DNA of 64,000 bases. Source: Nannocystis sp. SCPEA4 (GTDB lineage Bacteria; Myxococcota_A; Polyangia; Nannocystales; Nannocystaceae). The stretch covers positions 76,752 through 140,751 of the forward strand of contig NZ_JAPNJX010000001.1 in assembly GCF_026626685.1 (NCBI RefSeq), in the 5' to 3' direction. The notes under the pieces were generated by a model that was not told the DNA's origin, did not search any database, and saw only the letters and a list, made by a program, of their open reading frames with translations. Positions 4,676 through 21,905 of the stretch are shown piece after piece. How positions within the stretch are numbered: position 1 is the stretch's first letter; every line of letters starts with the position of its first letter. Both the position numbers and the translations under genes were made by a program.

Positions 4676-6751
4676 CTAACGCTTTTTGCTCGGACCGACC
4701 GGCAACAAATCGTCATCCGGCGCGGGGTTCGGCTTCTGCTTGACCTGCCCGTCGGGCGGCCGCTTGGTCCCGCCGCCCCCCGGTTTTTTGGTCCCGCCGC
4801 CCGCCGGCGGCTTCGGCTGCTCCACCGGCGGCTGCGGGATCGGCGTCGTCCCGGCCTTGGCCGTCAGCATGTAGTCGTAGGGCTGGTCCTTGGCCGCGCT
4901 GACGCTCAGCGCGGTCTGCATCGGCCCGTAGCCGGGCGCGGCCAGCGTGAGGTTGTATTTGCCGGCGTGCAGCGGCACCTCGACCGTGGTCGAGCCGAGC
5001 GGCCGCCCGTCGAGCGTGACCTCCGCAGTCACCGGGGCCGACCGGATCGTGATGATCGCGAACCCCATGTCCGGGTTCAGCTCCGGGAACAGCCCCTTGA
5101 TGCGCTGCTTCGCCTCCTCGTTGGCGGCGTCGAGCGCCAGCACGTCGCGGTAACCCTTGACCGCGCTGATGCGATCGCCGTCGCGCTCGTACTTGCGGGC
5201 GCTGGCCAGCGCCTTCTGCACCTCGAGCTTCGACCGCAGCTCGTCGGCGCGGTCGGACAGCTCCGGGTCGCGGGCGAACTCCTCCTCGGCGATCTCGAGC
5301 TTGCGCTCGGCCTGCGGCAGCTTGCCCTCGTCGATGAGCTGCGCGATCTTGTCGAGGTTGCTCTCGAGCTGCTCGCGCCCGCCCTCCTCGCGGGTCGCGA
5401 CCTCGGGGCGGTCGGCCTCGGCCTCGTTGCTGCCGCCGCCGAACGCGTACAGCAGCAACGCCAGCACCGAGAAGGCCGCCGCGCCGACCAGGATCAGGTT
5501 GAAGGTCCGCTGGCGGGCCGCGGCCTCTTGCGCCTGCGGACCGACCACCAGCAGCGTGCGCCCGTCCTGGCTCTGCACCAGGCTCCCGCCCTCGAGCGGG
5601 ATGCCCTGGGCCTTGAGCTGGTCGAGCGTCGCCTGCGGAAACTGAGCCGTGATCGGCATCACCGGCGACGGCATCGACTGTGCCAGTGCACCGGCGCCCG
5701 ACATCGGCTGCGCAAGGGGCGCGGCGGCAGCGGCCGGTGCCGACCGCGGCCGGCCGAACGTGCCGACCACGATATTCTCCGGCGACGGGATCGGCTTGCT
5801 GTGTTCGGTGCTGCTCTGCGGCTCCTCCGGCTCGAGCGGCTCCGTCCGCGGCTGGGCGCGCGGCAGGCGGAACATCGAGAACGGCACCTGGTCGATGAGC
5901 CCCTCGACGACCTCGTTGGCGTCGCGCGGGCGGCGTTCCCGGCTCTTCTCGAGGCACCGGCTGATGAGCTCCAGGACCCCTTCGGGGACGCCGTTGTCGG
6001 GCGGCAGGAGGTCCTGGATCGGCTGCGCCTTCTCGTGGACGTGCTTGTACAGGACCGACGCGTCGTTGTCGGCCTGGAACGGCATCACGCCCGTCAGCAT
6101 GAAGTAGAACAGGATGCCGACCGCGTAAACATCGACGCGCTGGTCGATCTTCTCGCCCAGGATCTGCTCCGGAGACAGGCAGGTGGGCGTGCCGAGGACG
6201 TTCTGCTTGGTGATGTCGGACGAGCCGGAGACCAGCTTTGCGAGCCCGAAATCGAGGATTTTGACGTAGTTGGCCCGGCCCTGCCGCTCGCACAGCATGA
6301 TGTTGGCGGGCTTGATGTCGCGGTGGATGATCCCGCGCGAATGGGCCTCGCCGAGGCCTTTGAGCACCTGCGCGGCGATCGGCACGAAGTCGGCCAGCGT
6401 GAGGTGGCCGCGGCGGCGGACGAACCGGTCGAGCGTCTCGCCCTGGACGTACTCCATGACGATGAAGGCCCGTCCGTCGATCCGGCCGAAGTCGTGGATG
6501 GTCACGATGTTCGGGTGCTGCAGGCTGGAAAGCCCGCGGGCCTCGCGTTCAAAGCGGGCCAGGGCCTCGGAATCGCCGACCCAGTCGGGCGCCAGCACCT
6601 TGAGGACCACCGGGCGATTCAGGTCGATCTGCGTCGCCTGGTACACGACGCCCATCCCACCGCGGCCGAGCCGGCGCTCGATCAGGTAGCGCCGAGCGAA
6701 AGTCGTCCCCAGCAGGGGGTCTGCTTGTGCTTGGTCTTCCGGTTTGCTCAT
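4676..6751 (-). CDS. Hanks-type Ser/Thr protein kinase with TM segment and extracellular TPR/PEGA domains
   Basis: Kinase motifs GRGGMGVVY, VLK, HRDIKPANIML, DFGLAK. One TM segment after a Pro-rich linker. C-terminal PEGA-like beta domain. Confidence 0.9.
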   Translation of the reverse strand: MSKPEDQAQADPLLGTTFARRYLIERRLGRGGMGVVYQATQIDLNRPVVLKVLAPDWVGDSEALARFEREARGLSSLQHPNIVTIHDFGRIDGRAFIVMEYVQGETLDRFVRRRGHLTLADFVPIAAQVLKGLGEAHSRGIIHRDIKPANIMLCERQGRANYVKILDFGLAKLVSGSSDITKQNVLGTPTCLSPEQILGEKIDQRVDVYAVGILFYFMLTGVMPFQADNDASVLYKHVHEKAQPIQDLLPPDNGVPEGVLELISRCLEKSRERRPRDANEVVEGLIDQVPFSMFRLPRAQPRTEPLEPEEPQSSTEHSKPIPSPENIVVGTFGRPRSAPAAAAAPLAQPMSGAGALAQSMPSPVMPITAQFPQATLDQLKAQGIPLEGGSLVQSQDGRTLLVVGPQAQEAAARQRTFNLILVGAAAFSVLALLLYAFGGGSNEAEADRPEVATREEGGREQLESNLDKIAQLIDEGKLPQAERKLEIAEEEFARDPELSDRADELRSKLEVQKALASARKYERDGDRISAVKGYRDVLALDAANEEAKQRIKGLFPELNPDMGFAIITIRSAPVTAEVTLDGRPLGSTTVEVPLHAGKYNLTLAAPGYGPMQTALSVSAAKDQPYDYMLTAKAGTTPIPQPPVEQPKPPAGGGTKKPGGGGTKRPPDGQVKQKPNPAPDDDLLPVGPSKKR

Positions 6752-6875
6752 GGCTTCTCGGGGGACCCTGTGACGTTAACACACCTTCCCCCGGTGTTGC
6801 GCGTCTTCGGCAAAACCCGGCGGCAGTTGCCGCAATGGCGCGCTCGTAGAAGCGCGGGACGACGCAGTCGACAGC

Positions 6876-8354
6876 TTGTGGCATGCTGCGGCCGTGCCCA
6901 CGACCCTGAGCTTCGCCCCGACCATTCCCGCTCTGCTCCACGGCAGCCGCGCCGTCCTCGTCGTCGCGGCGGCCGGCGTCCTCACCGGTGAGTTGCCGGC
7001 GTTCCTGCCGGCGCCGGCGCAGGCGCTGCTCGCCGAACTCGCGCGGGACACCAAACCGGGCGAGCTCGGAGCGGTATCCGGAACGCTGACCGGCCTGTCG
7101 GAGCCGCGCCGGTTGCTCCTCGGCGTGCTGCCCGACCACGGGTCTCGCTACAATTCGCCGAGCCGCGCCGAGAGCGTCCGCCGCGTGGTCGCCGGAGCGG
7201 ACCTCGGCAGCACCAAGGCCGGCATCATCCTGATCCTGCCGGATCCGGCGCACCTGCTGGCCACGGTCAACGCGGTCGGCCGCGCTCTCCCGCTCTATTC
7301 GAGCAAGAGCGGCGCGAGCAGCGGCGCCGAGGTCCAGATCCTCGCGCTCGACCTCGCCGGTCAACCGATCCCGATCCCGCCCGAGGTCGAGTCGACGATG
7401 CACGCCACGCGGATCGCCGCGCTGCACGTGGATACCCCGCCGACCGAGCTCAATCCCGAGGAGTTCGCCGCCCGCGCGCGCGACTTGTTGACCGCGATTC
7501 CGCGGGTCGAACTGCGCGAGATCGTCGGCGACGCCCTGCTCCAGGAGGGCCTCGCCGGCATCCACGCCGTCGGCCGCTGCGCGGTCAAGCCGCCGCGCAT
7601 GCTCATCGCCCAGTACACCCCGGCGACCGGCGGTGGCCGCTCGATCGCGCTGGTCGGCAAGGGCATCACGTACGACACCGGCGGTCTCAGTCTCAAGATC
7701 AGCGGCGCGATGAACACGATGAAGGGCGACTGCGGCGGCGCGGCCGCCGTGCTCGGGGCCTTCTGCGTGCTGGCCGCCAATCATTGCAAGCACAAGCTCT
7801 CGCTGATCCTCTGCATCGCCGAGAACGCCGTCGGCCCCGGCGCCTACAAGCCCGACGACATCCTCCGCATGCACTCCGGCAAGACCGTCGAGATCAACAA
7901 CACCGACGCGGAGGGCCGCCTGCTGCTCGCCGACGGCGTCAGCTACGCCACGCGAGCGCTCGGCGCCGAGGTCGTGTTCGACGCCGCCACCCTCACCGGC
8001 GCCCAGTTGATCTCGACCGGCCTGCTCCACGCCGCCATCGTCAGCAACGACGAGTTCCTCGAGCAGACCATCATCGCCGCCGGCAAGCACTGCGGCGACC
8101 TCGTCCACCCGCTGCCGTTCGCGCCCGAATTCTACAAGCAAGAATTCGAGAGTAATATCGCAGATATGGTCAATTCTGTAAAGAATCGCATGAACGCCCA
8201 GTCGGCCTGCGCGGCGCAGTTCGTCTACTGGCACATGGACGACACCAAGGCGTTGTGGTGCCACATCGACCTGGCGGGGCCGAGCTTCCCGAAGAACCGC
8301 GGCACTGGCTTCGGCGTGGCGCTGCTGTCGGAGACGATCCGCCGGATCCCCTGA
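6876..8354 (+). CDS. pepA: Leucyl aminopeptidase (peptidase M17)
   Basis: NTDAEGRL signature, the VGKGITYDTGG motif, and N-terminal M17 domain features. TTG start at 6876; a downstream ATG is possible. Confidence 0.9.
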   Translation: MWHAAAVPTTLSFAPTIPALLHGSRAVLVVAAAGVLTGELPAFLPAPAQALLAELARDTKPGELGAVSGTLTGLSEPRRLLLGVLPDHGSRYNSPSRAESVRRVVAGADLGSTKAGIILILPDPAHLLATVNAVGRALPLYSSKSGASSGAEVQILALDLAGQPIPIPPEVESTMHATRIAALHVDTPPTELNPEEFAARARDLLTAIPRVELREIVGDALLQEGLAGIHAVGRCAVKPPRMLIAQYTPATGGGRSIALVGKGITYDTGGLSLKISGAMNTMKGDCGGAAAVLGAFCVLAANHCKHKLSLILCIAENAVGPGAYKPDDILRMHSGKTVEINNTDAEGRLLLADGVSYATRALGAEVVFDAATLTGAQLISTGLLHAAIVSNDEFLEQTIIAAGKHCGDLVHPLPFAPEFYKQEFESNIADMVNSVKNRMNAQSACAAQFVYWHMDDTKALWCHIDLAGPSFPKNRGTGFGVALLSETIRRIP

Positions 8355-8365
8355 GGAGGTGCGGC

Positions 8366-9052
8366 ATGTACGGCTACGGCAACTGGACCCTGCCCGGCAG
8401 CTGGCACGCGGTGCTGGCCGACGAGATGGCCAAGCCATACTTCAAGGACCTCGTCGACTTCGTCAACTATGAGCGCGAAAACAATACGGTTTATCCTCCC
8501 GAGGAAGACGTCTTTCGCGCCTTCGAACTGACCCCCTTCGAGCAGGTCAAGGTCGTGCTGCTCGGGCAGGACCCGTACCACGACGAGGGTCAGGCCCACG
8601 GCCTGTGCTTCTCGGTCCTGCCGGGGGTCAAGCCGCCGGCCTCGCTGGCCAACATCTTCAAGGAGCTGGCCGCCGACCGCGGGTGCAGCGTCCCCCCGCA
8701 CGGCAACCTGCAATCGTGGGCCGAGCAAGGCGTCCTGCTGCTCAACACCGTCCTCACCGTCCGCGCCCACACCCCCGGCTCGCACAAGAACAAGGGCTGG
8801 GAGAAGTTCACCGACGCCGTCATCCGCGCCCTCGGCGAGCGCAACGAGCCGGTGGTGTTCGCCCTGTGGGGTGACTTCGCCAAGAAGAAGGCCACCCTGG
8901 TCGACCAGCGCCGCCACCGCGTCGTGGTCGCCCCCCACCCCTCGCCGATCCTCGGCAAGGGTCCGAAGTTCCTCGGCAGCCGGCCGTTCTCGGCCATCAA
9001 CACCGCGCTCGAGGACCTCGGCTACCCGGCGATCGACTGGCAAATCTTCTGA
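8366..9052 (+). CDS. ung: Uracil-DNA glycosylase (family 1)
   Basis: GQDPYH motif and the C-terminal HPSP loop; length ~228 aa. Confidence 0.9.
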   Translation: MYGYGNWTLPGSWHAVLADEMAKPYFKDLVDFVNYERENNTVYPPEEDVFRAFELTPFEQVKVVLLGQDPYHDEGQAHGLCFSVLPGVKPPASLANIFKELAADRGCSVPPHGNLQSWAEQGVLLLNTVLTVRAHTPGSHKNKGWEKFTDAVIRALGERNEPVVFALWGDFAKKKATLVDQRRHRVVVAPHPSPILGKGPKFLGSRPFSAINTALEDLGYPAIDWQIF

Positions 9053-9361
9053 CAGTCGCACGAGCCAGAGCCCGGGCCGTTGCCGGTGGTGGCAAAGCGC
9101 GATGACCTCCAGCCGCCGCCGCCGGCGATAGACGAGGAAATACGGCAGCCCGACGAGAAAACAGCGTCGAGTGCCGTACAGGTACGGCGGCCAGGCCTGG
9201 GGGAATTCGCGAATGCTGCTCAGGCTGCGCTGGAGTTCCGTCTCGAGTCGTTCTGCGTGCACACGGCCGAGTCGGCTTGCGAAGGCGCGCGCTTCTCGCA
9301 TTTCCCTGCGCACCTCTGGATGGAACGCGAACGTTTTCCGCTGCTCATTGTCGCCCTTCAT
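9053..9361 (-). CDS. ParE/RelE-family toxin-like ORF; 3' end unresolved because the frame stays open antisense through ung to 8225
   Basis: Toxin-like motifs FHPEVRREMREARAF...PYFLVYRRRRRLEVIALCHHRQRPGLW. Codon GC3 is lower than neighbours. No stop at the expected ~100 aa position, so it may be degenerate. Confidence 0.35.
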
Positions 9362-9375
9362 GCTACGGAATCGGA

Positions 9376-9570
9376 ATGACGACCGACTCTTTTGCAGGAG
9401 GCCCGCCGCGGATCCTCACGGACGCCGATGAGGTGACGCTTCGGAAGGCGCTGAAGCGTCGGCTGGCCGAGATCGACAGCGGCGAGGTCGAGCCCCTCTC
9501 CATCGAAGAGGTGTGGAAGGACGTGTTTGGGACCGAGGCGCCGCCGGAGTTGGTGGGCCCGTCGCGTTGA
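9376..9570 (+). CDS. Addiction-module antitoxin-like small protein (TIGR02574-like)
   Basis: RRLAEIDSGEVEPLSIEEV motif. 64 aa, ATG start 14 bp from the divergent toxin-like ORF. Confidence 0.5.
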   Translation: MTTDSFAGGPPRILTDADEVTLRKALKRRLAEIDSGEVEPLSIEEVWKDVFGTEAPPELVGPSR

Positions 9571-9648
9571 GCCGGCCCGATCCGCAGAAATTTTGTCCCC
9601 GCCGAAGTCGGCAGTTATCCTACATCACCCACACCGGAGTTTTGTCGG

Positions 9649-10032
9649 ATGACGCACGAACGACGCCAAGATCGCAGCGAAAACCCCTGCCTCGCCGGGG
9701 ATCTCTACCTTCGGGCGGTCGCCCAGCGGACCGGCCTGGAGCACCTCACGCTCGCCACGCATGAGGGCCTGCTCCTGGCGGGCGCGGGTGACAAGGACCT
9801 CGGCAACCGCGTCGCCGCGGTCGCCCCCATGTACGTCGAGGAGCCCGCGTCCCTGCGCGCCGGTCTGATCGACGAGTTGACCGACGGCCAGCCGATGCAG
9901 GTGTGGCGCGTCACCGTCCGCGACCGGCCCTTCTACCTCATCGGCTTCGGCACGCTCACCGACATGTCCGAAGAGGTCCAGGACGCCTTCGACCGGATCT
10001 TCGCCCGCCCCGCGCAGCGGACCGCGAACTGA
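9649..10032 (+). CDS. Hypothetical protein (127 aa)
   Basis: GC3-biased ORF with ATG start; no confident family assignment. Confidence 0.4.
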   Translation: MTHERRQDRSENPCLAGDLYLRAVAQRTGLEHLTLATHEGLLLAGAGDKDLGNRVAAVAPMYVEEPASLRAGLIDELTDGQPMQVWRVTVRDRPFYLIGFGTLTDMSEEVQDAFDRIFARPAQRTAN

Positions 10033-10062
10033 GATCCTCCTCGCGTCACGACGCGCGCTCCG

Positions 10063-10100
10063 AGAGCCGCGACGTTGTAGCGTCGCGGCTCTTTGCGTTG
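10063..10100 (+). terminator. Hairpin agagccgcgacg-ttgtag-cgtcgcggctct followed by ttgcgttg; probable intrinsic terminator of the 9649-10032 gene
   Basis: 12-bp perfect stem with a 6-nt loop and a T-rich tail. An identical stem recurs at 10373-10402. Confidence 0.45.
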
Positions 10101-10372
10101 TCCGAGTCGCAGAGCTGCGACGCACCTCGTCGTCGCGACCTGTCCCCGTCTCGCCTCGCCGTGCGTCTCCTTGAGTCGGCGGCGTTCTCGTCACGCGGCT
10201 TGCGTCTCGCGCACCTCGCCTCGTCATCCCTGCGCTCCGCGTCTCTCGTGACAAGCGCCCTGACGCGCCGCGTCATGTGGCCCGGCCGCCGTCACCGCCC
10301 TGCGAGAGTCAGCGCGACAGAGCCGCTGCGCACCAACCGCTCGCGCTCGTCGTCACCTCGCTTCTCGCGACC

Positions 10373-10402
10373 AGAGCCGCGACGATCCCTCGTCGCGGCT
10401 CT
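10373..10402 (-). repeat. Second copy of the same hairpin stem (agagccgcgacg-atccct-cgtcgcggctct), 24 bp beyond the stop of the 10426-11358 gene
   Basis: Stem sequence identical to 10063-10092 with a different loop; no U-tract on the minus strand. Confidence 0.4.
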
Positions 10403-10425
10403 TCGTCGCGGCAGCCTCTCGCGTC

Positions 10426-11358
10426 TCAGCTCGGGATCACGCAGACACCGACGTCATCGGTGCCCGGCGGTGGGTCGGCGAAGAACGGCACGCAGTCTTC
10501 GCTCGGGGCGCAGTCGGCGTCGCCGCCGGACACCGAGCAGAAGGGCGTGCAGCAGCCGGTCGAGCCCTCGTCGCAGCCTTCGACCGTCTCGGCGGCCTGG
10601 CAGCTGAAGCCCGCGAGGCAGGCGTTCGTGTACTCGCAGGGGGAGTTGTCGTCGCCGGTGTTGGCGCCCGTGTCGGGAGAGAAGCAGATGAAGCCGCCGA
10701 ACGACGCGTCGCCGTAGCAGCCCTGCATGCCTTCGCAGTCCTGCAACAGCGGGTCGCACGACTTCAGGCAGATCGGCAGCACGCCCTCGTTGGCCGTCTC
10801 GAGGCAGAGCTCACCGTCGCCGCAGCTGTTGCCCTCGCCGCAGTACGCCGTGCACGTGCCGCCCTGACCGGTCTCGAAGTCGAAGTTGAGGCAGATCGTG
10901 CCCTTCGAGCAGTTGTCGAGCCCACTGAAGACCGACTCGCCCGCGTTGATGTTGCACGGGTCGCCGACCACGCCGCCGTTCACCGGCTCCTCGACGCACT
11001 TGTTGGCGTCCCAGTAGTTCATCGCCATCGAGTCGTAGGCCACGCACTTCTGGCCTTCGGGACAGTCTTGGATCTTCGGGCTGCACATGCTCGTGCCGCC
11101 CTCGGTCGTCGGGTCGGTGGTCGTCGGCGAGTCGGTGCCGGCCTCCGTGCTCGTGCCCGTCGGTTCCGTCGACTCGGTCATCGACCCGGTCGTCGGCCCC
11201 GTGTTCGACTCCGTCCCCGGATCCGTCGTCGGATCGGTCGTCGGAGTGCTCGTGTCGGTCTCGGTGTCCTGCCCCTTCTCGCCGCACCCCGCGGTCAGCA
11301 GCGCGCCGACGAGCGCTGCAATGCCCAAGCCCTTCACGCTTCCCAGCTTCTCCATCAT
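10426..11358 (-). CDS. Cys-rich secreted lipoprotein with Thr/Pro-rich linker
   Basis: Lipobox LLTAGC, a TDPTT low-complexity linker, and >30 Cys in the C-terminal domain. Confidence 0.6.
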   Translation of the reverse strand: MMEKLGSVKGLGIAALVGALLTAGCGEKGQDTETDTSTPTTDPTTDPGTESNTGPTTGSMTESTEPTGTSTEAGTDSPTTTDPTTEGGTSMCSPKIQDCPEGQKCVAYDSMAMNYWDANKCVEEPVNGGVVGDPCNINAGESVFSGLDNCSKGTICLNFDFETGQGGTCTAYCGEGNSCGDGELCLETANEGVLPICLKSCDPLLQDCEGMQGCYGDASFGGFICFSPDTGANTGDDNSPCEYTNACLAGFSCQAAETVEGCDEGSTGCCTPFCSVSGGDADCAPSEDCVPFFADPPPGTDDVGVCVIPS

Positions 11359-11516
11359 GACGATTTTTATCGCGTGCCGGCTGCGCGGCAGTCAACGCCT
11401 GCATCCGTGCGCGCTGCTCCATGCCCCTAGTCTCGCGGCTCCAGCGCCGATGCAGCGGCGCGCGAACGCCCGGCCTCGGATTGAGCCACCGTCTCATTCT
11501 GATACACTCGGCGCGG

Positions 11517-13070
11517 ATGGAGCCAGCAGCCCGCAAGAAGCCCGCGCGAACGACCACTCCTGATGCGCCGGCGAAGCGGACGCGCGTCGATCGCGACAGC
11601 GTGCTGTTCGCGCTCGGCGAGCTGGTGCGTCGCGAGGTCGACCTCGACGCCTTGCTGGCGCAGGTCATCGACACCGTCACGAAGGCGATGGACGCCGACC
11701 GCGGGACCTTCTATCTGGTCGACCGCGCCCGCGGGGAGCTGTTCAGCAAGGCCGCGCATCTGCCGGAGCTGCGCGAGATCCGGCTCAAGGTCGGCCAGGG
11801 CATCGCCGGTCACGTCGCGCGCACCGGCGAGGCGATCAACCTCTCGCACACCGAGGGCGACCCGCGCTTCTACGGCGCCATCGACCGGGCCACCAACTAC
11901 GCCACGCGCTCCATGCTGTGCGTCCCGGTCCTCGATCGCGCCGGCGAGATCCTCGGCGTGCTCCAGCTGCTCAACAAGAAGGGCGCCGCCTTCGACGACG
12001 ACGACGAGGCCCTGCTGCGCGCGCTCGCCAGCCAGGTCGCCATGCTCGTCGAGAGCACCAGCCTCTACGCGCAGCTGCGGGCACCCACCGGCGGACCGCT
12101 GCGTTACCGCTTCAACGGCGTGGTCGGCGGCGGCGCGCGGATGAGACGCGTCTACGATCTCGTGACACGCGCGGCCGGCACCGACGCGACCGTCCTCATC
12201 ACCGGCGAGACCGGCACCGGCAAGGGTTTGATCGCGCGGGCGATCCACTACAACAGCCCGCGCGCCGGGCGACCATTCGTCGCCGTCGACTGCGCCTCGC
12301 TGCCGGCCACCTTGATCGAAAACGAGCTCTTCGGCCACGAGCGCGGCGCGTACACCGGCGCCGACCAGCGCAGCGTCGGCAAGTTCGAGGCCGCCGACGG
12401 CGGCACCGTCTTCCTCGACGAGCTCGGCGAGGTCCCGCTGACGCTGCAGAGCAAGCTGCTGCGCGTCCTGCAGGACCGCGAGTTCGAGCGGGTCGGCGGG
12501 CGCAAGACCCTCAAGGTCGACGTCCGGATCCTCGCCGCCACCAACCGCAACCTCGAGGACATGGTCGCGCGCCAGCGCTTCCGCGAGGACCTCTACTACC
12601 GCCTGCGCGTGCTCTCGCTGGCCATGCCGCCGCTGCGCGAGCGCGGGCCCGAGGACCTCGAGCAGCTCGCGTATCACTTCCTCGCCGGGTTCGCCCAGCG
12701 CCACAACAAGCAGGTCGTGCGCTTCTCGCCGCCCGCGCTCGCGCGGCTGCACGCGCACAGCTGGCCCGGCAACATCCGCGAGCTCGAGAACTGCATCGAG
12801 GGCGCGGTCGTCCTCAGCGTCGGCGACGCCATCGAGGTCGCCGACCTGCCCTTGCCCGCCGACCCGCGCGAGCTCCCGGCCGCGGGCCGCAAGGCGGGTC
12901 GCGGCGGCGCCGCCGACCTCGCGCGTCTGTCGTGGACCGAGATGGAGAAGCTCTACATCGAGGCGGTCCTCGCCGCCCACGACGGCAACCGCAGCGGCGC
13001 CGCGCGGGCCATGGGGATCGGCCGCGCCACCCTCCTGCGCAAGATCAAGACGCTCAAGATCCGCGCCTGA
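11517..13070 (+). CDS. Sigma-54-dependent transcriptional activator (GAF - AAA+ sigma-54 activation - HTH)
   Basis: GAF domain, Walker [15 protein letters not shown]-type loop (ERGAYTGA), ELENCIE motif and a C-terminal Fis-type HTH. Confidence 0.9.
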
Positions 13071-13209
13071 GCCCCGGCTCCAGCGCCGTTCGCTGCACCT
13101 GTTTCATTTCGATCCACGTGTATTGTTCCGATGCGCCCCGTCCGTGGCCTTGGCGCGCGGCCGCGGGCGCGGCGCCCGACAACCTCGCGTCCGGCCCCGC
13201 CGCGGTCGC

Positions 13210-13225
13210 TGGCACGGCGCCTGCT
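13210..13225 (+). promoter_or_regulatory. Sigma-54 (-24/-12) promoter TGGCAC-ggcgc-CTGCT upstream of the flotillin gene
   Basis: Matches TGGCAC-N5-TTGCW at GG and GC with correct spacing. Lies ~27 bp upstream of the ATG, with GGAG RBS between. Confidence 0.5.
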
Positions 13226-13251
13226 AAGTGGTCTCGCGCAGGAGTCGAACG

Positions 13252-14823
13252 ATGACCACCAAGCCCGCTACCACCACGCCCGCCACCCCCGACAGCCAAT
13301 GGCGCCAGGGCAAGCCCGTGGAGGACCCCGAGAAGATGAAGCGCTGGGGCTTCATCACCGCCAAGCCGTCCGAGTACCTCATCCACGTGCGTCGGGGACG
13401 GATCCGTCGCGCCAGCACCGGCCAGGGCGCGAGCTGCTTCAAGTGGCCGTGGGACAGCGTGGCCGTCATCCCGACCACCATCAACCGCCTGCAGTTCACC
13501 GCCGACCAGGTCACGCTCGAGAAGGTCGGCGTGCAGATCACCGGGCTCGCCGTCTACCGGATCGCCGAGCCGGAGCTGACCTTCCGCATGCTCAACTTCT
13601 CCTACAGCGAGCGCGCGCAGGAGAAGCTCGGCGAGATCCTCACCGAGATGTTCGTCGGCGCCACCCGGCGCCTCGTCGCCAACCTGCGCGTCGAGGACGC
13701 CATGACCCGGCGCAAGGAGTCGATCGCGCGCGAGCTGATGGCGGAGCTCGTGCCGATCGTCGAGGGCCGCGGCCGCACCGACGACAGCACCGCCACCGGT
13801 TGGGGCGTGATCATCGACACCGTCGAGATCCAGAACGTGCAGATCCTGTCGGACACCGTGTTCCAGGACATGCAGGCCCGGTTCCGCGCCGAGCTGGCCC
13901 TGCGCGCGCGCATGGCCGAGATGGAGAGCGCCCGCGAGATCGCCACCCTCGAGGCGACCTCGTCGCGCCAGATCGAGGAGGCCAAGATCGCCAGCGAGAC
14001 CGCCACGCGCGAGCTCAAGGCCCAGGCCGAGAGCCGCACCATGCAGATCGAGCTGGCCGAGGCCGCCAAGCGCGACGAGCTCGAGGCGCGCGCCGCCGAG
14101 GAGCAGCGCGTGCGCGACCAGATGCGCCTGTTCGCCGAGCTCAAGGCCTCCACCGAGCTCGCCGAGGAGCGAGCCGCCCGCGAGCAGGCGCGGGCCCTCG
14201 CCGAGCTCAAGGCCGCCACCGAGCTCGCCGAGGAGCGAGGTGCGCGCGAGCAGGCGCGCCTGCTCGGCGAGCTGCGGGCCAAGACCCAGATCGAGCAGGA
14301 GAAGGCCGCCCAGGCCGAGGCCGTGCGGCTGGCCCAGCTCGCGCGCGAGCGCAAGTACGCCGAGGCCGAGCGTCAGCTGCTCGAGGTCAAGCACACCACG
14401 CAGCAGCGCGAGGCCGAGCTCGCCGCCCAGCTGGCGATGAACCGCAGCAAGGCCAGCACCGAGCTCAAGGACCTCGAGAGCGCCGCGGCCGCGCGGCTCA
14501 AGGAGCGCGAGCTGCAGCTCGAGCGGCTCGCCGGCGAGGTCCGGGCCGCCGTGGCCCGGGCCGCTCGCGAGGTCGACAACCTCGTCTCCGACGACCGGAT
14601 CCGCATGGCCCTGGTCGAGACCGGCCTGCCCGCGATCGCCGGCGCGTTCGCGCAGAAGTTCGGCGAGGTCAAGATCACCTCGTTCGGCGAGGGCGCCGAC
14701 CCCTCGGCCATGGTCGCCCGCGGGATCGGCGAGGTCCTCGCGCTCGCCCGCAAGGTCGGCACCGACCTGCTCGCCACGCCGGCCGCGCCTGTCCCGTCGG
14801 ACAGCAGCCAGCCGGGCCAGTGA
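13252..14823 (+). CDS. Flotillin-like SPFH/Band-7 protein with long EA-rich coiled coil
   Basis: SPFH domain motifs, then ~200 aa of AEL/REQ repeats typical of FloT/YqiK. Confidence 0.85.
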   Translation: MTTKPATTTPATPDSQWRQGKPVEDPEKMKRWGFITAKPSEYLIHVRRGRIRRASTGQGASCFKWPWDSVAVIPTTINRLQFTADQVTLEKVGVQITGLAVYRIAEPELTFRMLNFSYSERAQEKLGEILTEMFVGATRRLVANLRVEDAMTRRKESIARELMAELVPIVEGRGRTDDSTATGWGVIIDTVEIQNVQILSDTVFQDMQARFRAELALRARMAEMESAREIATLEATSSRQIEEAKIASETATRELKAQAESRTMQIELAEAAKRDELEARAAEEQRVRDQMRLFAELKASTELAEERAAREQARALAELKAATELAEERGAREQARLLGELRAKTQIEQEKAAQAEAVRLAQLARERKYAEAERQLLEVKHTTQQREAELAAQLAMNRSKASTELKDLESAAAARLKERELQLERLAGEVRAAVARAAREVDNLVSDDRIRMALVETGLPAIAGAFAQKFGEVKITSFGEGADPSAMVARGIGEVLALARKVGTDLLATPAAPVPSDSSQPGQ

Positions 14824-15106
14824 ACGCGCCCCTCACATGTCCCAGGGGACAGCCAGCGCCGCAGGGCGGCGGCGCTCCACGCCCTGTCTCTTCGGACATA
14901 CCGGCGCCGGACCCATCGTTACGCGCATCGCCTGTCCTCCCGGACATGTCCTTGCGCACCCGTACGGGCGGCCCCTGCGCGGCTCCTCGCGGCTCGCCCG
15001 GCTCCTTCGTCGCCGCGCTGGCGACCACCCCCCTGTCCTCGGCCCCCCCGCGGCGCGACCGGTTGACCGGCACCGTGAGCAGTCCACGTTTTGCAGCACC
15101 ACGACG

Positions 15107-15727
15107 ATGCTGCCTGCCTCGACCTTGCCCGCCACGCCCCGCTCGACCTGTCTCTTGCGACAGGCTGTCGTCGTGCTGTCGATGGCCGCCTGCGACCCCT
15201 CGTCGGGCGACGGCGACGCCGACAGCGGCGACGACACCGGCGGGGCCGTCGCCTGTCCGCTCAACGACGCGTGGGAGCCGAACGACGACCCCGACGATCC
15301 GACCGACATGGCCTGGGACGCCGCCGACACGTGGTCGGCCTGGCACGAGGTCGACGACGCCTACCTGTGCCCTGGCGAGGACGACTGGTACCGCATCGAC
15401 CTCGCCGGCCTCGGCTACAGCGTGCACTACCTTTACGTCCGCGCGCTGGTGAAGGACGCCGGACTGTGCGGCGCCGCCTGCGGGGAGCCGGTGCTTGCGG
15501 CCGGCCCCGAGAACGCGATGACGATCGAGGTCTACCGGGCCGACACCCACGAGGCGCTGATCGCCCAGACCGCCGACGACGGCGTGCTCGCGCTCGCCGG
15601 CTCCGGCGACGACTACGCCGACGGCCTGCTGCTGCGCGTCCACAGCGACACACCGACGGCCGAGTATCCGTACCGGCTGAGCGTCTCCGTGCGCAACTAC
15701 GAAGGCGAGGACGAGTGTGAGTGCTGA
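15107..15727 (+). CDS. Secreted lipoprotein with PPC (pre-peptidase C-terminal)-like domain
   Basis: Signal plus lipobox VVLSMAAC, an acidic linker, and a DDWYRIDL motif. Confidence 0.5.
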   Translation: MLPASTLPATPRSTCLLRQAVVVLSMAACDPSSGDGDADSGDDTGGAVACPLNDAWEPNDDPDDPTDMAWDAADTWSAWHEVDDAYLCPGEDDWYRIDLAGLGYSVHYLYVRALVKDAGLCGAACGEPVLAAGPENAMTIEVYRADTHEALIAQTADDGVLALAGSGDDYADGLLLRVHSDTPTAEYPYRLSVSVRNYEGEDECEC

Positions 15728-16742
15728 GCCCGCACCATGGCGCGCCGCGATCGCGGCCCTCGCCGGCCTCGCGCTGACCTGTAGCGCGCCGACACCGACC
15801 GAGCCGACGAGCACCGACGACGAGGTCGTCCGCGATCGCGTCGACGTCCACGTCCACCTCGTCGGCGGCGCCGTCGACGAGTTGCTGGCCGCGCTCGACC
15901 GTCAGGCGATCGCGGCCGCCGTCGTCATCGCCTCGCCGCACCTCGATCCCGCCCTCGGCCGCGAGCCGGGCCGCGACGCCCGCCTGCGCGGCTGGCGGGA
16001 GGCCAACGAGGCCCTGCTCGCCGCCACCGCCGACCACCGCGATCGCCTGTTCCCCTTCATCACCGTCGAGCCGGCCGAGGTCGGCATCGCCGAGCTCGAG
16101 CGCTGGTTTCAGCGCGGCGCTCGCGGGGTCAAGCTCTACGCCGGCCACCAGGAGCTGCACGCGCGCCCGCTCGACGACCCGGCCCACGCCTCGCTGTTCG
16201 AGTGGCTCGAGCATCACTCCGTCCCTGTGCTCGCCCACGTCAACACCGTCCGCTACCGCGACGAGCTGGCCCGGCTCCTGCGCGCCCACCCGCGGCTCGA
16301 GCTGGTGTGCGCCCACCTGTGCGGCAGCCGGACCGACCTCGATCGCCTCGCCGGTCTCCTGCGCGAGTTCCCGCGGCTGCGCGTCGACACCAGCCACGGC
16401 GCCGGCCTGCCCGGCGTCGACGGCTTCACCGCGATCGAGACCGACCGCGATCGCCTGCGCGCCCTGATCGAGGTCCAGCCCGAGCGCTTCCTGTTCGGCT
16501 CTGACCTCGTCACCACCCGCGCGCCGGGCCACGAGGCCGACGCCGCGCGCGAGTGGGACCTGCAGCTGTCCGCCAACCTCGGGTTGCTCGAGCGCGAGCG
16601 CTTCGAGTTCTGGCGCCACACCGCCCGGATCGGCGCGTTCACCCCCGGCGTCTACCACGGCCTCGCGCTCGCCGACCCCGCGGTCTCGCGCGTGCTCGGC
16701 GGCAACGCCCGCGCCTGGCTCGGCGCCTACGGCCGCGAGTGA
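15717..16742 (+). CDS. Amidohydrolase-family (TIM-barrel metal-dependent hydrolase) lipoprotein
   Basis: VDVHVHL metal-binding motif and a conserved His/Asp pattern. GTG start overlapping the upstream stop. Lipobox-like LALTC. Confidence 0.7.
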   Translation: MSAEPAPWRAAIAALAGLALTCSAPTPTEPTSTDDEVVRDRVDVHVHLVGGAVDELLAALDRQAIAAAVVIASPHLDPALGREPGRDARLRGWREANEALLAATADHRDRLFPFITVEPAEVGIAELERWFQRGARGVKLYAGHQELHARPLDDPAHASLFEWLEHHSVPVLAHVNTVRYRDELARLLRAHPRLELVCAHLCGSRTDLDRLAGLLREFPRLRVDTSHGAGLPGVDGFTAIETDRDRLRALIEVQPERFLFGSDLVTTRAPGHEADAAREWDLQLSANLGLLERERFEFWRHTARIGAFTPGVYHGLALADPAVSRVLGGNARAWLGAYGRE

Positions 16743-16745
16743 CGC

Positions 16746-18116
16746 TCACTCATCGGACTCTTCGGACATGTCCGATTCGCCATCCGGTCCGAGCTCGAGG
16801 TCGACCAGGATCGGGTTGTGATCCGACACCAGCTTGCCCTCGGCGACCGGCCGCTCGATGACCTGCGGCGCGCGCGGGCGCAGCCCCTTGCCGGCGAACC
16901 AGTCGACGCGCAGCGGCACCCGCCCGCCCCACGGCGCCAGCCGGCGCTCGAGGTACGTCCACATCACCCGGCGCATCGCCTTCGGCATGTAGTCGAGCGC
17001 CTTGCGGAAGATCTCGGGGTCGTAGATGTCGTAGTAGATGGTCCCGCGGGTGAAGTCGTTGAAGCCGTCGATCTCGAACCCGCCCTCGCGCATCGCCGCG
17101 AACACCGCCCGCTCGAAGTGCTCCTCCGGCTTCATGTACTGGGCCGCCATGCCCTCGATGCCGAAGCGCGTCAGCTTGTAGAAGAAGTTGTAGGCCAGGC
17201 CGCGGCCGCTGCTCAGGTCGTACGTGTTGGTGTTGAGGTCGCCGCCGAGGAGCATGCGTTCGCCGCCGAACTCGCGCAGGCGGGCCACGATCTCGCGGAT
17301 GTGGCGGGCCCGGTCGCGCGGGCCGGCGAACGGGTCGAGGTGGACCAGCGCGACCGTCAGCGGCCCGTCGGGCAGCAGCAGCTCGCACAGCAGCGCGCGC
17401 TTGTTGCCGATCCGCTTCTCCGTCGCGTGGAACTTGTCGCGCCGCTCGTGCAGCTCGACCGCCTCGAAGCGCAGCACCGGGAAGCGGGTCAGCAGGGCGC
17501 AGCCGTGCATCGCCTTGGTGTTCGGCACCCCGTGGCCACGTTCGCCGCGGTCGCCCTCGACCAGCACGATGTGATAGTTGGCGAACACGTAGCCCATGCC
17601 GAGCGCGTGGGCCAGCTCCTTGGGCACGTTGCGGTTGCCCGAGCGACCCATGCCGATGTCGACCTCGGTCAGCAGCAGCAGGTCGGCCGCGGTCAGCTCG
17701 GGGTCGGAGGTCAGGAGCGTGTGCAGGCCCTCGAAGCGCTTCCCGCGCTCCACGTTCCAGGCGACCGCGCGGACGATCCCCGGCCGCCGTGGCGCCAGCG
17801 AGTGGCCGAGCGTCGGCTCCAGATCCCACTCGAAGCCGCGGAGGACCCGCTCGAGCTGCGGGCGGATCGTGCGGAACACCGGGTCTCGCTCCAGGCGCCG
17901 GCGCGTGCGGATCCGGGCGATGTGGGCCAGCGCGTCGGTGAAGTCGTGGTCGAGCTGCGAGCGGAGCGGGAGGGGACCTGGCTCGGAGACCAGGTTAGGA
18001 TAGGCGAAGAGATTCGTCGGCACGCGTCTCCCCGGGTCGGACAGATCGGTACCAGATCGCCGGGGCGCTGTCCTCGTCTGCTCCCGCGCGCCCCGGGCAA
18101 TTTCGATCTCGCTCAC
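16746..18116 (-). CDS. Endonuclease/exonuclease/phosphatase (EEP) family protein
   Basis: EEP motifs including the C-terminal SDHNPILVDL. GTG start. Confidence 0.75.
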   Translation of the reverse strand: MSEIEIARGAREQTRTAPRRSGTDLSDPGRRVPTNLFAYPNLVSEPGPLPLRSQLDHDFTDALAHIARIRTRRRLERDPVFRTIRPQLERVLRGFEWDLEPTLGHSLAPRRPGIVRAVAWNVERGKRFEGLHTLLTSDPELTAADLLLLTEVDIGMGRSGNRNVPKELAHALGMGYVFANYHIVLVEGDRGERGHGVPNTKAMHGCALLTRFPVLRFEAVELHERRDKFHATEKRIGNKRALLCELLLPDGPLTVALVHLDPFAGPRDRARHIREIVARLREFGGERMLLGGDLNTNTYDLSSGRGLAYNFFYKLTRFGIEGMAAQYMKPEEHFERAVFAAMREGGFEIDGFNDFTRGTIYYDIYDPEIFRKALDYMPKAMRRVMWTYLERRLAPWGGRVPLRVDWFAGKGLRPRAPQVIERPVAEGKLVSDHNPILVDLELGPDGESDMSEESDE

Positions 18117-18178
18117 GGCTGCGCGGTACGCGGGGCAGAGCGCCGTGGATCGCCCGCGACCCGGGTTATTCTTGTCGC

Positions 18179-19093
18179 ATGTTGCAGTTCGGCCTCGTCG
18201 CCATCCTCGCCTCGCCGCTCCCGTGGACCGCGCCTGCGCCCGCGCCCAGTCCGATCTACGGCGGCGACCTCGTCGAGCCGGGCTCGTGGCCGAGCGCCGT
18301 GGCGATCCTCATGGGCGACGTGCTGTGCACCGGCACCCTCGTCAGCGACACCGTCGTCCTCACCGCCGCGCACTGCCTCGACAGCAACCCGTCGCCGTCG
18401 CTCATGCACGTCGTCATCGGCGACGACGTGTTCTCTCAGTTCGACGAGTTCGTCGGTGTCGTCGAGCACGGCTCGCACCCCGACTTCTGCGGCACCGACA
18501 CCGAGAAGTGCAAGGTCGACATCTGGGACTACGGCTACGTCGTGCTCGAGCGGCCGATCACCAGCGTCGAGCCGACGCGGCCGATCGCCAGCCAGGCCGA
18601 GTGGGACGAGTCGATGTACATCGGAGCCCCGCTCACCTTGGTCGGCTTCGGCGACGACGAGAAGATGCTCAAGGGCTTCAAGCGCCAGGTCGACGTCGAG
18701 ATCGTCCGCTTCAGCACCACCGGCCTCGAGTTCCAGGCCGGCGGCATGGGCTTCGATTCGTGCCAGGGCGACTCCGGCGGCCCCGCGTTCGCCACGCTCG
18801 CCTCCGGCGAGGTCGTGCTCGCGGGCGTCGTCTCGCGCGGCTACACCTGCGGCAAGGGCGGCTTCTACGCCATCCCTTACGCCGCGCTGTGCTGGCTGAA
18901 CCAAGAGACAGGCGTCGACCTGCGCACCGACGCGTGCGAGGCCTGCGACTGCCTCGACATCTCGCCCAAGTCCGACGAGGGCTGCAACTGCCGCAGCGGC
19001 GAAGCCGGCGGCCCGCTCGGGCTCGCCGTGTTGCTCGCGCTGGCCGGTCTCAGAAGACCTGGGGCCCGACGACGACGTACGTCTCGGCCTTGA
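18179..19093 (+). CDS. Trypsin-like serine protease (S1) with MYXO-CTERM sorting tail
   Basis: TAAHC and GDSGGP catalytic motifs. C-terminus CNCRSGEAGGPLGLAVLLALAGLRRP...RRRR. Confidence 0.85.
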   Translation: MLQFGLVAILASPLPWTAPAPAPSPIYGGDLVEPGSWPSAVAILMGDVLCTGTLVSDTVVLTAAHCLDSNPSPSLMHVVIGDDVFSQFDEFVGVVEHGSHPDFCGTDTEKCKVDIWDYGYVVLERPITSVEPTRPIASQAEWDESMYIGAPLTLVGFGDDEKMLKGFKRQVDVEIVRFSTTGLEFQAGGMGFDSCQGDSGGPAFATLASGEVVLAGVVSRGYTCGKGGFYAIPYAALCWLNQETGVDLRTDACEACDCLDISPKSDEGCNCRSGEAGGPLGLAVLLALAGLRRPGARRRRTSRP

Positions 19094-19964: not shown

Positions 19965-21905
19965 TCACGGTCCCGCGGGCCTGAGCCCGCGCCGCGGCCG
20001 CCTGCCGCCCGCGACATGCGACACGCTCGATGTACGCGACGCTCCTCCCTCCGGCGGCACCAGACACGAAGGTCCGTGGCCGATGAGAGCACCGCGACCG
20101 GCTCGCCGCAGCGCCTCGCGGGCGAGGTGATGCTGCGACTCGTCCCAATAAAGAAGGAGCGACTTCTGCAACTTCTTCTCGCGCAGCTCTTTCGCCGTGT
20201 AGACCGGCGCGCGCGTGAAGGGATCGCGACCCGTGTAGTACATGCAGGTCGCCATGCTCATCGGCGTGGGAATGAAGTCCTGCACCTGTCGCGGCCGGAC
20301 GCCCCGCGCCTTGAGCCATAGCGCAAGGTCGACCATGTCGTCGAGCGTGCTGCCCGGGTGCCCCGAAATGAAGTACGGCACCAAATGCTGATCCTTGCCG
20401 GCGGCCTCGCTCGCGCACGCGAACTGCTCGGCGAAGCGCTCGTAGCTGGCGACGCCCGGCTTCTTCATCCGCGCGAGCACCTCGTCCTTCACGTGCTCCG
20501 GAGCCACGGACAATTGTCCGCCGGTATGGTGTGTGGCGAGCTCGCGGATGAACGCCGGAGATCGTTCAGCCAGGTCGTAGCGAACACCCGACGCGATGAA
20601 CACGCGGCGCACACCCTCGGCCTGGCGCACCTTCTTCAGCAGGTCGACCAGCGGCGCGTGGTCGGTGTCGAGGTTCTCGCATACACCGGGGTGCACGCAC
20701 GACAGCTTCCGGCACGCGCGCTCGATCTCCTCGCTCTTGCAGCGCATGCGATACATGTTGGCCGTCGGCCCGCCGACGTCGGAGATCACCCCGCGGAAGT
20801 CGTCCATGCGGCGCAGCGCCCGGATCTCGCGCAGCACGCTCTCGGCCGAGCGCGACTGGATGATGCGGCCTTCATGCTCGGTGATCGAGCAGAACGTGCA
20901 GCCGCCGAAGCAGCCGCGCATCGTCACGATCGAGTGCTTGACCGTCTCGAACGCCGGGATCTTGCTGCCCTCGTACGTCCAGTGCGGCCGGCGCACGAAC
21001 GGCAGGTCGTACAGCTGATCCATGTCGCGCATGTCGAGCGGCAGCGCCGGCGGGTTGCAGTAGAGCGCCCGATCGCCGTGCGGCTGGATCAGCGGGCGTC
21101 CGTTGCCCGGGTTGGTCTCGTGCTGGAACGCCCGCGACATCTCGAGGAACGCGTCCTTGTCGGCGCTCACCTCCTCGAAGCTCGGCAGGTGCAGCGGCAG
21201 CCCGTCGCGCACGTAGCGGCTCTTCGGCAGGTGCTCCCACTGCCCCTTGGGCAGCATCACCGCGGTGCCGCGGATGTCGCGGATCGTGCTGATGTCTTCG
21301 CCGGCCTTGAGGCGCCGCGCGACCTCCCACACCGGCCGCTCGCCCATGCCGAAGATCAGCAGGTCGGCCTTGCTGTCGACCAGCACCGAGCGGCGCACCT
21401 GGTCGCTCCAGTAGTCGTAGTGGGCGATCCGCCGCAGGCTCGCCTCGATGCCGCCGAGCACCACCGGCAGCCCCGGGAACGCCTGCCGGGCCAGGTTCGC
21501 GTAGACGATGCTGGCGCGGTTCGGCCGCTGCTCGAGCGCGCCGTCGGGCGAGTACTGGTCCTCGCCGCGGACCTTCTTCTGCGCCGTCAGCTTGTTGAGC
21601 ATCGAGTCGAGGTTGCCCGCGGTGATGCCGACGAACAGCCGCGGCCGGCCCAGGCGTGAGATGTCCTTCGGGTCATCCCAGCGCGGCTGCGCGATCATCC
21701 CGACCCGCAGCCCGCGGCCCTCGAGGAACCGGCCGATCAGCGCCCCGCCGAACGCCGGGTGGTCGACGTACGCGTCGCCGTTGATGATGAGGACGTCGAG
21801 CTCGTCCCACCCGCGCGCGTCCATCTCCTCGCGGGTCATCGGCAGGAACCCCCGCAGGTCGCGCGGCGGCGCCGTCTTGCTGGCCCTGAGCTGGACGAGC
21901 GACAT
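19965..21905 (-). CDS. YgiQ-family radical SAM protein (UPF0313)
   Basis: CxxxCxxC-like radical SAM cluster ([12 protein letters not shown]) and YgiQ N- and C-terminal domains. Confidence 0.85.

Follow-up and report, generated by a model that had tools for sequence, protein, structure and literature searches.

A GAF-type sigma-54 activator gene next to a flotillin-like gene with a -24/-12 promoter in Nannocystis: a putative one-component regulatory module

Bacterial flotillins and related SPFH proteins have been widely studied as scaffolds, though the control of their production is still poorly understood. We examined a 64,000-nt stretch of Nannocystis sp. SCPEA4 (contig NZ_JAPNJX010000001.1; the whole stretch is referred to as the window, and positions are given within it) in which a gene for a sigma-54 activator is followed, after a 181-nt intergenic spacer (13071-13251), by a gene for a flotillin-like protein. 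The same pair is found in N. radixulma (locus L001), with 100% identity for the activator and 99% for the flotillin-like protein. The whole analysis was computational. Domain content, motifs, motif conservation, and gene linkage were read directly; binding, signal, transcription start, autoregulation, and the cellular role of the flotillin-like protein are what we infer. The features at this locus are as follows.

11474-11507, + strand: candidate autoregulatory operator, two tandem motif copies, 10-43 nt upstream of the activator ATG
11481-11508, + strand: putative weak sigma-70-like promoter of the activator gene, TTGAGC-N16-TACACT with TG before the second element, matching at 8 of 12 positions
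11517-13070, + strand: sigma-54 activator open reading frame (ORF), 517 aa, group III (GAF-AAA+-HTH)
11640-12053, + strand: GAF domain of the activator (aa 42-179; Pfam match given as aa 42-176)
12126-12620, + strand: AAA+ domain of the activator (aa 204-368; Pfam Sigma54_activat)
12939-13049, + strand: HTH_8 domain of the activator (aa 475-511; Pfam)
13102-13136, + strand: candidate upstream activator sequence, two tandem 16-nt units in a conserved AT-rich block
13210-13225, + strand: predicted sigma-54 -24/-12 promoter TGGCACGGCGCCTGCT (TGGCACG-GCGC-CTGCT), matching at 11 of 12 consensus positions
13240-13244, + strand: Shine-Dalgarno sequence AGGAG, 7 nt upstream of the ATG at 13252 and inside the predicted 16-nt leader
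13252-14823, + strand: ORF of the flotillin-like target, a 523-aa predicted SPFH protein
14094-14273, + strand: 66-nt (22-aa) tandem repeat, 2.7 copies, in the coiled coil of the target (Tandem Repeats Finder score 246)

A previous sequence-only reading of this DNA had placed a GAF-type sigma-54 activator directly upstream of a flotillin gene, and the Pfam domains and coordinates of the activator agree with this. The protein matches Sigma54_activat (PF00158; E = 2e-69), GAF (6e-25), AAA_lid_14 (4e-22), and HTH_8 (2e-9). The Walker A motif reads GETGTGKG (aa 230), and the sigma-54 contact loop reads GAYTGA (aa 277), a variant of GAFTGA; such Phe-to-Tyr variants are known in activators that are regarded as functional (PMC4641369). 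Judged from these domains and motifs, the activator is intact, with GAF, AAA+, and HTH all present. An AAA+ domain with Walker A and contact loop, a Fis-type HTH, and candidate upstream sites nearby are together the marks of a bacterial enhancer-binding protein. In NCBIfam, the protein missed every equivalog cutoff. NifA was rejected as its identity (389.8 bits against the TIGR01817 equivalog cutoff of 528.85), so the Joint Genome Institute label "Nif-specific regulatory protein" carried by homologues is an over-annotation.

The sigma-54 consensus is TGGCACG-4N-TTGC(T/A) (as quoted in PMC7910581). The sequence-only reading had reported TGGCAC-N5-CTGCT at 13210-13225, 140 bp past the activator gene and about 27 bp before the flotillin ATG. 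The motif is there as TGGCAC-GGCGC-CTGCT, on the coding strand, 140 nt after the activator stop codon and ending 26 nt before the ATG. Its GG (13211-13212) and GC (13223-13224) dinucleotides lie 10 nt apart, and the predicted transcription start at about 13236 would give a 16-nt leader that includes AGGAG. This is the sole site in the window with at most one mismatch to TGGCACG-N4-TTGCW, and the expected number of such sites on the single 181-nt intergenic strand is about 6e-4. A position weight matrix (PWM) scan of the window also ranked it first (15.4 bits, runner-up 12.4); this PWM is a rough one, rebuilt from published frequencies and not calibrated, and we relied on pattern counts and conservation instead. 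Across the window, sigma-54-like sites are depleted, with two sites having at most two mismatches to TGGCACG-N4-TTGCW against 9.0 +/- 2.9 expected from shuffles, a pattern that is consistent with selection against spurious binding sites. In Myxococcus xanthus, deletion of rpoN has been reported to be lethal (PMC12316311).

The promoter element is conserved well beyond the window. All nine Nannocystis loci in alignment A1 carry CTGGCACG-N4-TGCT unchanged, although the intergenic DNA around it has diverged (mean column identity, 65%), with indels in the promoter flanks. The sequence around the Shine-Dalgarno, GCGCAGGAG, is kept in six Nannocystis loci. Of 40 Myxococcota loci, 33 carry a looser pattern, TGGC-N8-TGCW, within 250 nt upstream of the orthologue; the background frequency of this pattern is 1.2e-4 per nt. 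Nine loci from Myxococcaceae and Archangium all have TGGC.G-N6-TGCA, placed about 27-36 nt ahead of the orthologue start codon and just upstream of a GGAGG-type ribosome-binding site, and the element is invariant in both alignments A1 and A4. It reads TGGCACGCGGCGTGCT in Haliangium ochraceum, TGGCACGGCTCCTGCT in a metagenome-assembled genome (MAG; locus L043), and TGGCACC-N4-TTGCA in two further loci (L036 and L039). It is this conservation that raises above chance a motif that, taken alone, does not exceed it window-wide. Because the element recurs upstream of orthologues across Myxococcota, sigma-54 control looks, from these sequences, like an ancestral property of the flotillin-like gene family in this phylum.

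A search of the spacer for upstream activator sites, which the sequence-only reading had called for, found two tandem 16-nt units, TTTCATTTCGATCCAC (13102-13117) and TATTGTTCCGATGCGC (13121-13136), with the overall consensus TATCATTTTGATACAC. They lie 19 nt apart from start to start, with centres at about -126 and -107 from the predicted transcription start. In the Nannocystis alignment, they form an AT-rich block that is conserved within otherwise diverged, GC-rich intergenic DNA, and no other conserved candidate enhancer was found in 13071-13209. In two loci (L011 and L012), a small ORF lies between the two genes, and the units have remained beside the promoter rather than at the end of the activator gene; in MAG L043, they likewise stand beside the promoter. 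The inserted ORF (L011:5224-5588 and L012:5365-5702) encodes a small Cys-containing lipoprotein-like protein; it was seen in two Polyangia MAGs and is absent from the window.

The same motif recurs upstream of the activator gene itself. A unit PWM, for which the units in front of the flotillin-like gene served as the only training set, was run over both strands of about 13 kb at each locus. Within 5517-19000 of the window (13.5 kb), the best non-training matches were CCTCGGATTGAGCCAC (11474-11489) and TCTCATTCTGATACAC (11492-11507), which scored 21.3 and 15.0 bits, respectively. In all Nannocystis loci, the best independent matches were two tandem units directly upstream of the activator start codon, and in L011 and L012, matches 15-50 nt upstream of that codon ranked second or third. 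The string TCATTYYGATNCAC occurs twice in the whole window (11494 and 13104; 0.00 expected), and all nine loci of alignment A2 have TGATACA unchanged. In the loci whose activators are only 52% identical (L036 and L039), a different inverted repeat is found instead of the units. A single unit-like motif, CTTCATTTCGGGGCAC, was also found about 7 kb downstream (20358-20371, - strand), inside a radical S-adenosylmethionine (SAM) gene (19965-21905), and is conserved in four other loci (L002:13234, L003:13305, L004:13376, and L013:13538). Given its position within this gene, we treated it as coding conservation or chance, probably the former.

The two motif copies upstream of the activator gene overlap the sigma-70-like promoter, which scores under the threshold of the scan tool and was read by eye from the sequence. 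This overlap suggests that the activator probably represses its own synthesis, i.e., negative autoregulation, as has been described for the PexR system of M. xanthus (PMC12754779). The promoter ends 8 nt before the activator ATG, so the activator mRNA would have little or no leader. For the paralogous pexR, a leaderless transcript made from a sigmaA promoter has been proposed (PMC12754779).

Linkage of the two genes extends beyond Nannocystis sp. SCPEA4. The two genes are linked in at least 14 loci: the activator gene precedes the flotillin-like gene, both on one strand, in 11 genome loci and MAG L043 (the arrangement of the window), and the pair is divergent in L036 and L039. At least 11 further pairs of activator and flotillin-like homologues were found on metagenomic contigs of the same length, with activator identities down to 58%. 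Among Myxococcaceae (L022:5881-9273 and L018; Myxococcus and Corallococcus), the flotillin-like orthologue is longer, with 630 aa, and is divergent from an isc cluster (IscS, IscU, and HscA); a DsbD-like thiol:disulfide interchange gene follows 58 nt after it. The M. xanthus orthologue of 630 aa is flanked by these two neighbours. A conserved inverted repeat, GCGCCGTCCTGGAGC...GCTCCGGAATGGCGC, lies upstream of the Myxococcaceae sigma-54 element and is a candidate site for a separate, unlinked activator.

The product of the target gene is divergent. The protein itself has no match in Pfam or NCBIfam, even at E = 10, and its similarity to QmcA has an E-value of 4.6e-4. Band_7 (PF01145) was found in 22 of 38 family members (49-92% identity; best E = 8e-22), and the family profile matched human flotillin-1 marginally (E = 0.009), with the C-terminal LP...A tail aligned. 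An AlphaFold2 model of the target had a moderate mean predicted local distance difference test score of 67.6, with aa 18-74 below 50. A fold search with this model placed the flotillin complex first (9bq2_B; E = 6e-7, about 18% identity, full length), followed by HflK/C, stomatin, prohibitin, and the major vault protein; all 20 Foldseek matches with E-values of at most 1e-3 are SPFH-fold proteins. On the strength of its homologues, the profile search, and the fold search, the target is assigned to the SPFH family with flotillin as its nearest relative. Flotillin, the identity proposed in the sequence-only reading, here denotes a divergent SPFH protein that has no Pfam match of its own and no transmembrane segment. 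The family is small (513 representatives at E-values of at most 1e-3 among 1.84 billion proteins), and its best source-named matches are nearly all from Myxococcota.

The target consists of a conserved N-terminal SPFH region, a predicted helix of about 240 residues (aa 201-444) that is rich in Ala (23%), Glu (18%), and Arg, and a C-terminal tail of the flotillin type. It contains neither a transmembrane nor a hairpin segment (top 19-residue Kyte-Doolittle mean, 1.05). The helix had been described as an unusually long coiled coil; this did not hold up, as its length is similar to that of the aligned stretch of flotillin-1 (residues 167-380). What varies is the number of 22-residue repeats. Whole units were gained or lost in the alignment between the window, P0002/P0010, and P0007, and this copy number accounts for orthologues of 500, 523, and 549 aa among related Nannocystis. 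An SPFH cage walled by this helix would gain about 3 nm with each 22-residue unit. By analogy with other SPFH proteins, the flotillin-like protein probably assembles into a large oligomer with coiled-coil walls that sits at the inner membrane, on its cytoplasmic side.

Taken together, the intact activator, the conserved promoter, the linkage, and the upstream sites support computationally the proposal of the sequence-only reading that the activator drives the flotillin-like gene. We consider it probable that the two genes form a one-component sigma-54 module, in which the adjacent GAF activator drives the flotillin-like gene from the -24/-12 promoter. The individual steps follow by analogy with the GAF-type activators NorR, NifA, and PexR. 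The C-terminal HTH of the activator would bind the two tandem 16-nt sites at 13102-13136, and the N-terminal GAF domain would keep the AAA+ ATPase off until a ligand arrives. The activated oligomer would then touch sigma-54 RNA polymerase at TGGCACG-N4-CTGCT (13210-13225), and ATP hydrolysis would open the promoter. Transcription from about 13236 would yield the 16-nt leader with AGGAG and, from it, the flotillin-like protein. The mechanism itself is textbook group III sigma-54 activation; the new part is the target gene.

Several observations weigh against this proposal. If the -24/-12 match were no working promoter, the flotillin-like gene would be transcribed by read-through or from an unrecognised sigma-70-type promoter. 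A simple scan of 11300-15200 found no intrinsic terminator between the two genes (its single terminator-like site is inside the activator ORF), so read-through from the activator gene is possible. Moreover, the motif by itself is near chance across the 64-kb window, where 0.43 sites with at most one mismatch are expected on both strands, or 0.87 for an 11-base version of the pattern. A further point against the module is that, in eight loci (L007-L010, L014, L016, L036, and L039), just 11-13 nt separate the end of the element from the predicted ATG, which would require a leaderless mRNA or a mis-called start codon there. In these loci (e.g., L007:5923-5952, L008:5962-5991, and L036:5937-5967), any Shine-Dalgarno-like run would be upstream of the transcription start. 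Nevertheless, the 16-nt element is invariant in diverged DNA, recurs phylum-wide at the same position while its flanks vary, and belongs to a class of motifs that the window otherwise avoids; the scan also reported no consensus sigma-70 promoter in 11300-15200. A non-functional match is therefore very improbable. It is also quite unlikely, if less so, that the promoter is real but fired by a different, unlinked activator, with the adjacent one regulating something else or only itself. Such a view draws on the Myxococcaceae orthologues, some Polyangia ones such as L009, and those of L026, L028, and L029, which keep the promoter with no activator within 6 kb, so adjacency is not obligatory. The closest activator homologue in Myxococcus (P0209, 57% identity) is unlinked, stands in an unrelated context, and has no motif in common with the loci above. 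A tie between P0209 and the Myxococcus orthologue was rejected; just scattered 10-mers are shared with the upstream region of L033, and none were found in the P0209 intergenic DNA. Myxobacteria have also been reported to encode many sigma-54 activators (PMC12316311). On the other side stand the 14 or more linked loci in two orientations, the motif common to both upstream regions that changes along with activator divergence, and the promoter-proximal sites that persist despite an inserted gene.

The upstream units may be read differently as well. They could be sites for a bending protein such as integration host factor (IHF) or HU, or for another factor, with the copy upstream of the activator gene being only an extended -10 element. 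The reverse complement of the units, TATCAAAACGA, is near the IHF consensus, which we take to be WATCAANNNNTTR, and TGATACACT, 8 nt before the activator ATG, fits TGnTATAAT, so that part of the unit there could be a mere extended -10. However, two units at a helical-repeat-like spacing are present in both regions, and their centres at about -107 and -126 correspond to the position of an enhancer, not to the usual position of a bending site between enhancer and promoter. A different repeat appears where the activator is only 52% identical, and the spacer holds no other conserved enhancer candidate. We regard a bending-protein or -10 origin of the units as unlikely. A further alternative concerns the product rather than its control. 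The target may be a soluble or peripheral SPFH cage with another role, e.g., a stress-induced scaffold or compartment, rather than a membrane-microdomain flotillin. It lacks a transmembrane or hairpin segment and falls under the Pfam Band_7 threshold, vault protein is among its fold matches, and its small family is essentially confined to Myxococcota. In addition, no NfeD-type Pfam match was found in the adjacent genes, the flanking ORFs being the activator and ORFs without Pfam matches. Against this, it is the eukaryotic flotillin complex, itself without a transmembrane helix, that gives the best structural and profile matches over the full length. Such a cage is a possibility to be taken seriously, albeit the less probable one.

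The signal that the activator may sense is suggested by its GAF domain. Among solved structures, its best matches are by far the GAF domains that bind cyclic AMP (cAMP) or cyclic GMP (cGMP), i.e., Anabaena CyaB2 (1ykd; E = 6e-35), PDE5 (6e-27), PDE2A (1e-23), and PDE10A (3e-22), which cover the whole domain. By comparison, GAF domains of other types matched at 2e-7 (DevS), 5e-6 (NifA), and 9e-5 (Aquifex Nlh1). With CyaB2, PDE2, PDE5, and PDE10, the activator also shares the NKxnFx3DE signature (aa 153-164); in contrast to those proteins, it joins its GAF domain to a sigma-54 AAA+ module. From these similarities, the ligand is most likely a cyclic nucleotide. Weighing against this assignment, the signature is incomplete in some activator orthologues. 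It is present in its strict form in only 46 of 120 homologues, and it ends in ...DA in P0142, the activator linked to the Band_7 gene in MAG L043. Since so few homologues keep the strict form, we consider the assignment a lead and not a result. The full proposal that the activator is a cyclic-nucleotide receptor, with a PDE/CyaB-type GAF domain that binds cAMP or cGMP and turns on sigma-54-dependent transcription of the gene for a flotillin-like cage protein that lacks a transmembrane segment, is accordingly speculative and, as a whole, rather improbable. If true, it would represent a direct route from a second messenger (cAMP or cGMP) to sigma-54 that governs an SPFH scaffold; our literature search found no description of a direct cAMP/cGMP-to-sigma-54 route. 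In MAG L043, the genes that follow the activator/Band_7 pair (8627-11530) encode an H-NOX (HNOB) protein, a hybrid histidine kinase, and a GAF-guanylate/adenylate cyclase. This one locus hints at gas and cyclic-nucleotide signalling around the module.

The neighbouring genes at 10426-11358 (- strand) and 15107-15727 (+ strand) encode Cys-rich or acidic secreted lipoprotein-like proteins, and no Pfam family was found for either. The ORF that opens at 14837 probably starts at an internal Met near 15107, which leaves a hairpin-rich spacer of about 280 nt downstream of the flotillin-like gene. The palindrome TGTCC-N4-GGACA occurs in 23 copies in the window (1.8 expected). Four of these, repeated about every 48 nt, make up an array (14790-14946) that begins in the last codons of the flotillin-like gene and runs beyond its stop codon; further copies in the window include those at 2111/2125, 25991/26005, and 58359/58422. 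In other Nannocystis loci, the palindrome also occurs downstream of the orthologues. The palindrome looks like a dispersed hairpin element of the repetitive extragenic palindromic (REP) kind that could terminate or stabilise the transcript. PADLOC found no defence-system match for the target and the downstream ORFs.

The proposed module would tie a flotillin-like gene to a dedicated sensor and to a class of promoter that is silent until activated, and this link is conserved across the phylum. With one sensor, two defined DNA sites, and one promoter, it would offer a genetic handle on the inducing condition and on the function of the family. A search of the paper library that combined flotillin or SPFH with sigma-54, RpoN, or Myxococcus found nothing relevant.

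Among characterised systems, the closest relative of the activator is PexR (MXAN_1565) of M. xanthus, a GAF-type sigma-54 activator of ahpC and katB (PMC12754779). PexR has an adjacent target and repeated upstream sites, represses the sigmaA promoter that its sites overlap, and has an own mRNA that was proposed to be leaderless (PMC12754779). The window resembles this system in the GAF-AAA+-HTH architecture, the phylum, the one-component logic, the adjacent target, and the repeated sites at enhancer distance; sites overlapping the promoter of the regulator and a leaderless regulator mRNA would be further points in common, on the window side as predicted here. The differences are also clear. 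The target in the window is a flotillin-like gene instead of ahpC, katB, or ccp, and the genes are in tandem, whereas those of PexR are divergent. The metal ligands of PexR are H102/H120/C122/D140; the activator in the window has H99, H111, C135, and D140, with a spacing unlike that of PexR, and its GAF domain has no H-x-C pair and looks like the cyclic-nucleotide type instead. No PexR-type CACCG-n6-CGGTG repeats were found in 11359-11516 or 13071-13251, and the scan of neighbouring ORFs showed neither a peroxidase nor a catalase domain. Judged by the described features of PexR, membership was rejected because the repeats, the metal-ligand residues, and the neighbours all fail.

The eukaryotic flotillins 1 and 2 share with the target the SPFH region, the long Ala/Glu-rich helix, the aligned C-terminal tail, and the lack of a transmembrane helix; the target differs in having only about 18% identity and in falling under the Pfam Band_7 threshold. 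Bacterial flotillins (FloT/YuaG, FloA, and YqiK) carry a membrane anchor at the N terminus, and their genes are usually accompanied by one for an NfeD partner; floT and floA of Bacillus subtilis belong to the sigmaW regulon. Unlike FloT, FloA, and YqiK, the target has neither a membrane anchor nor an NfeD neighbour. In Escherichia coli, the gene for the sigma-54 activator PspF lies beside pspA, whose product is a membrane-associated helical protein that oligomerises and is made when needed (PMC10948618). The window likewise has an activator gene beside its target gene. PspF lacks a sensor domain; PspA controls it by binding. The activator in the window, in contrast, carries a GAF domain; its target is an SPFH protein, whereas PspA is ESCRT-III-like, and the scan of neighbouring genes turned up no psp genes. 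In functional terms, the module recalls both PspF-pspA and the control of SPFH genes in Bacillus by a stress sigma factor.

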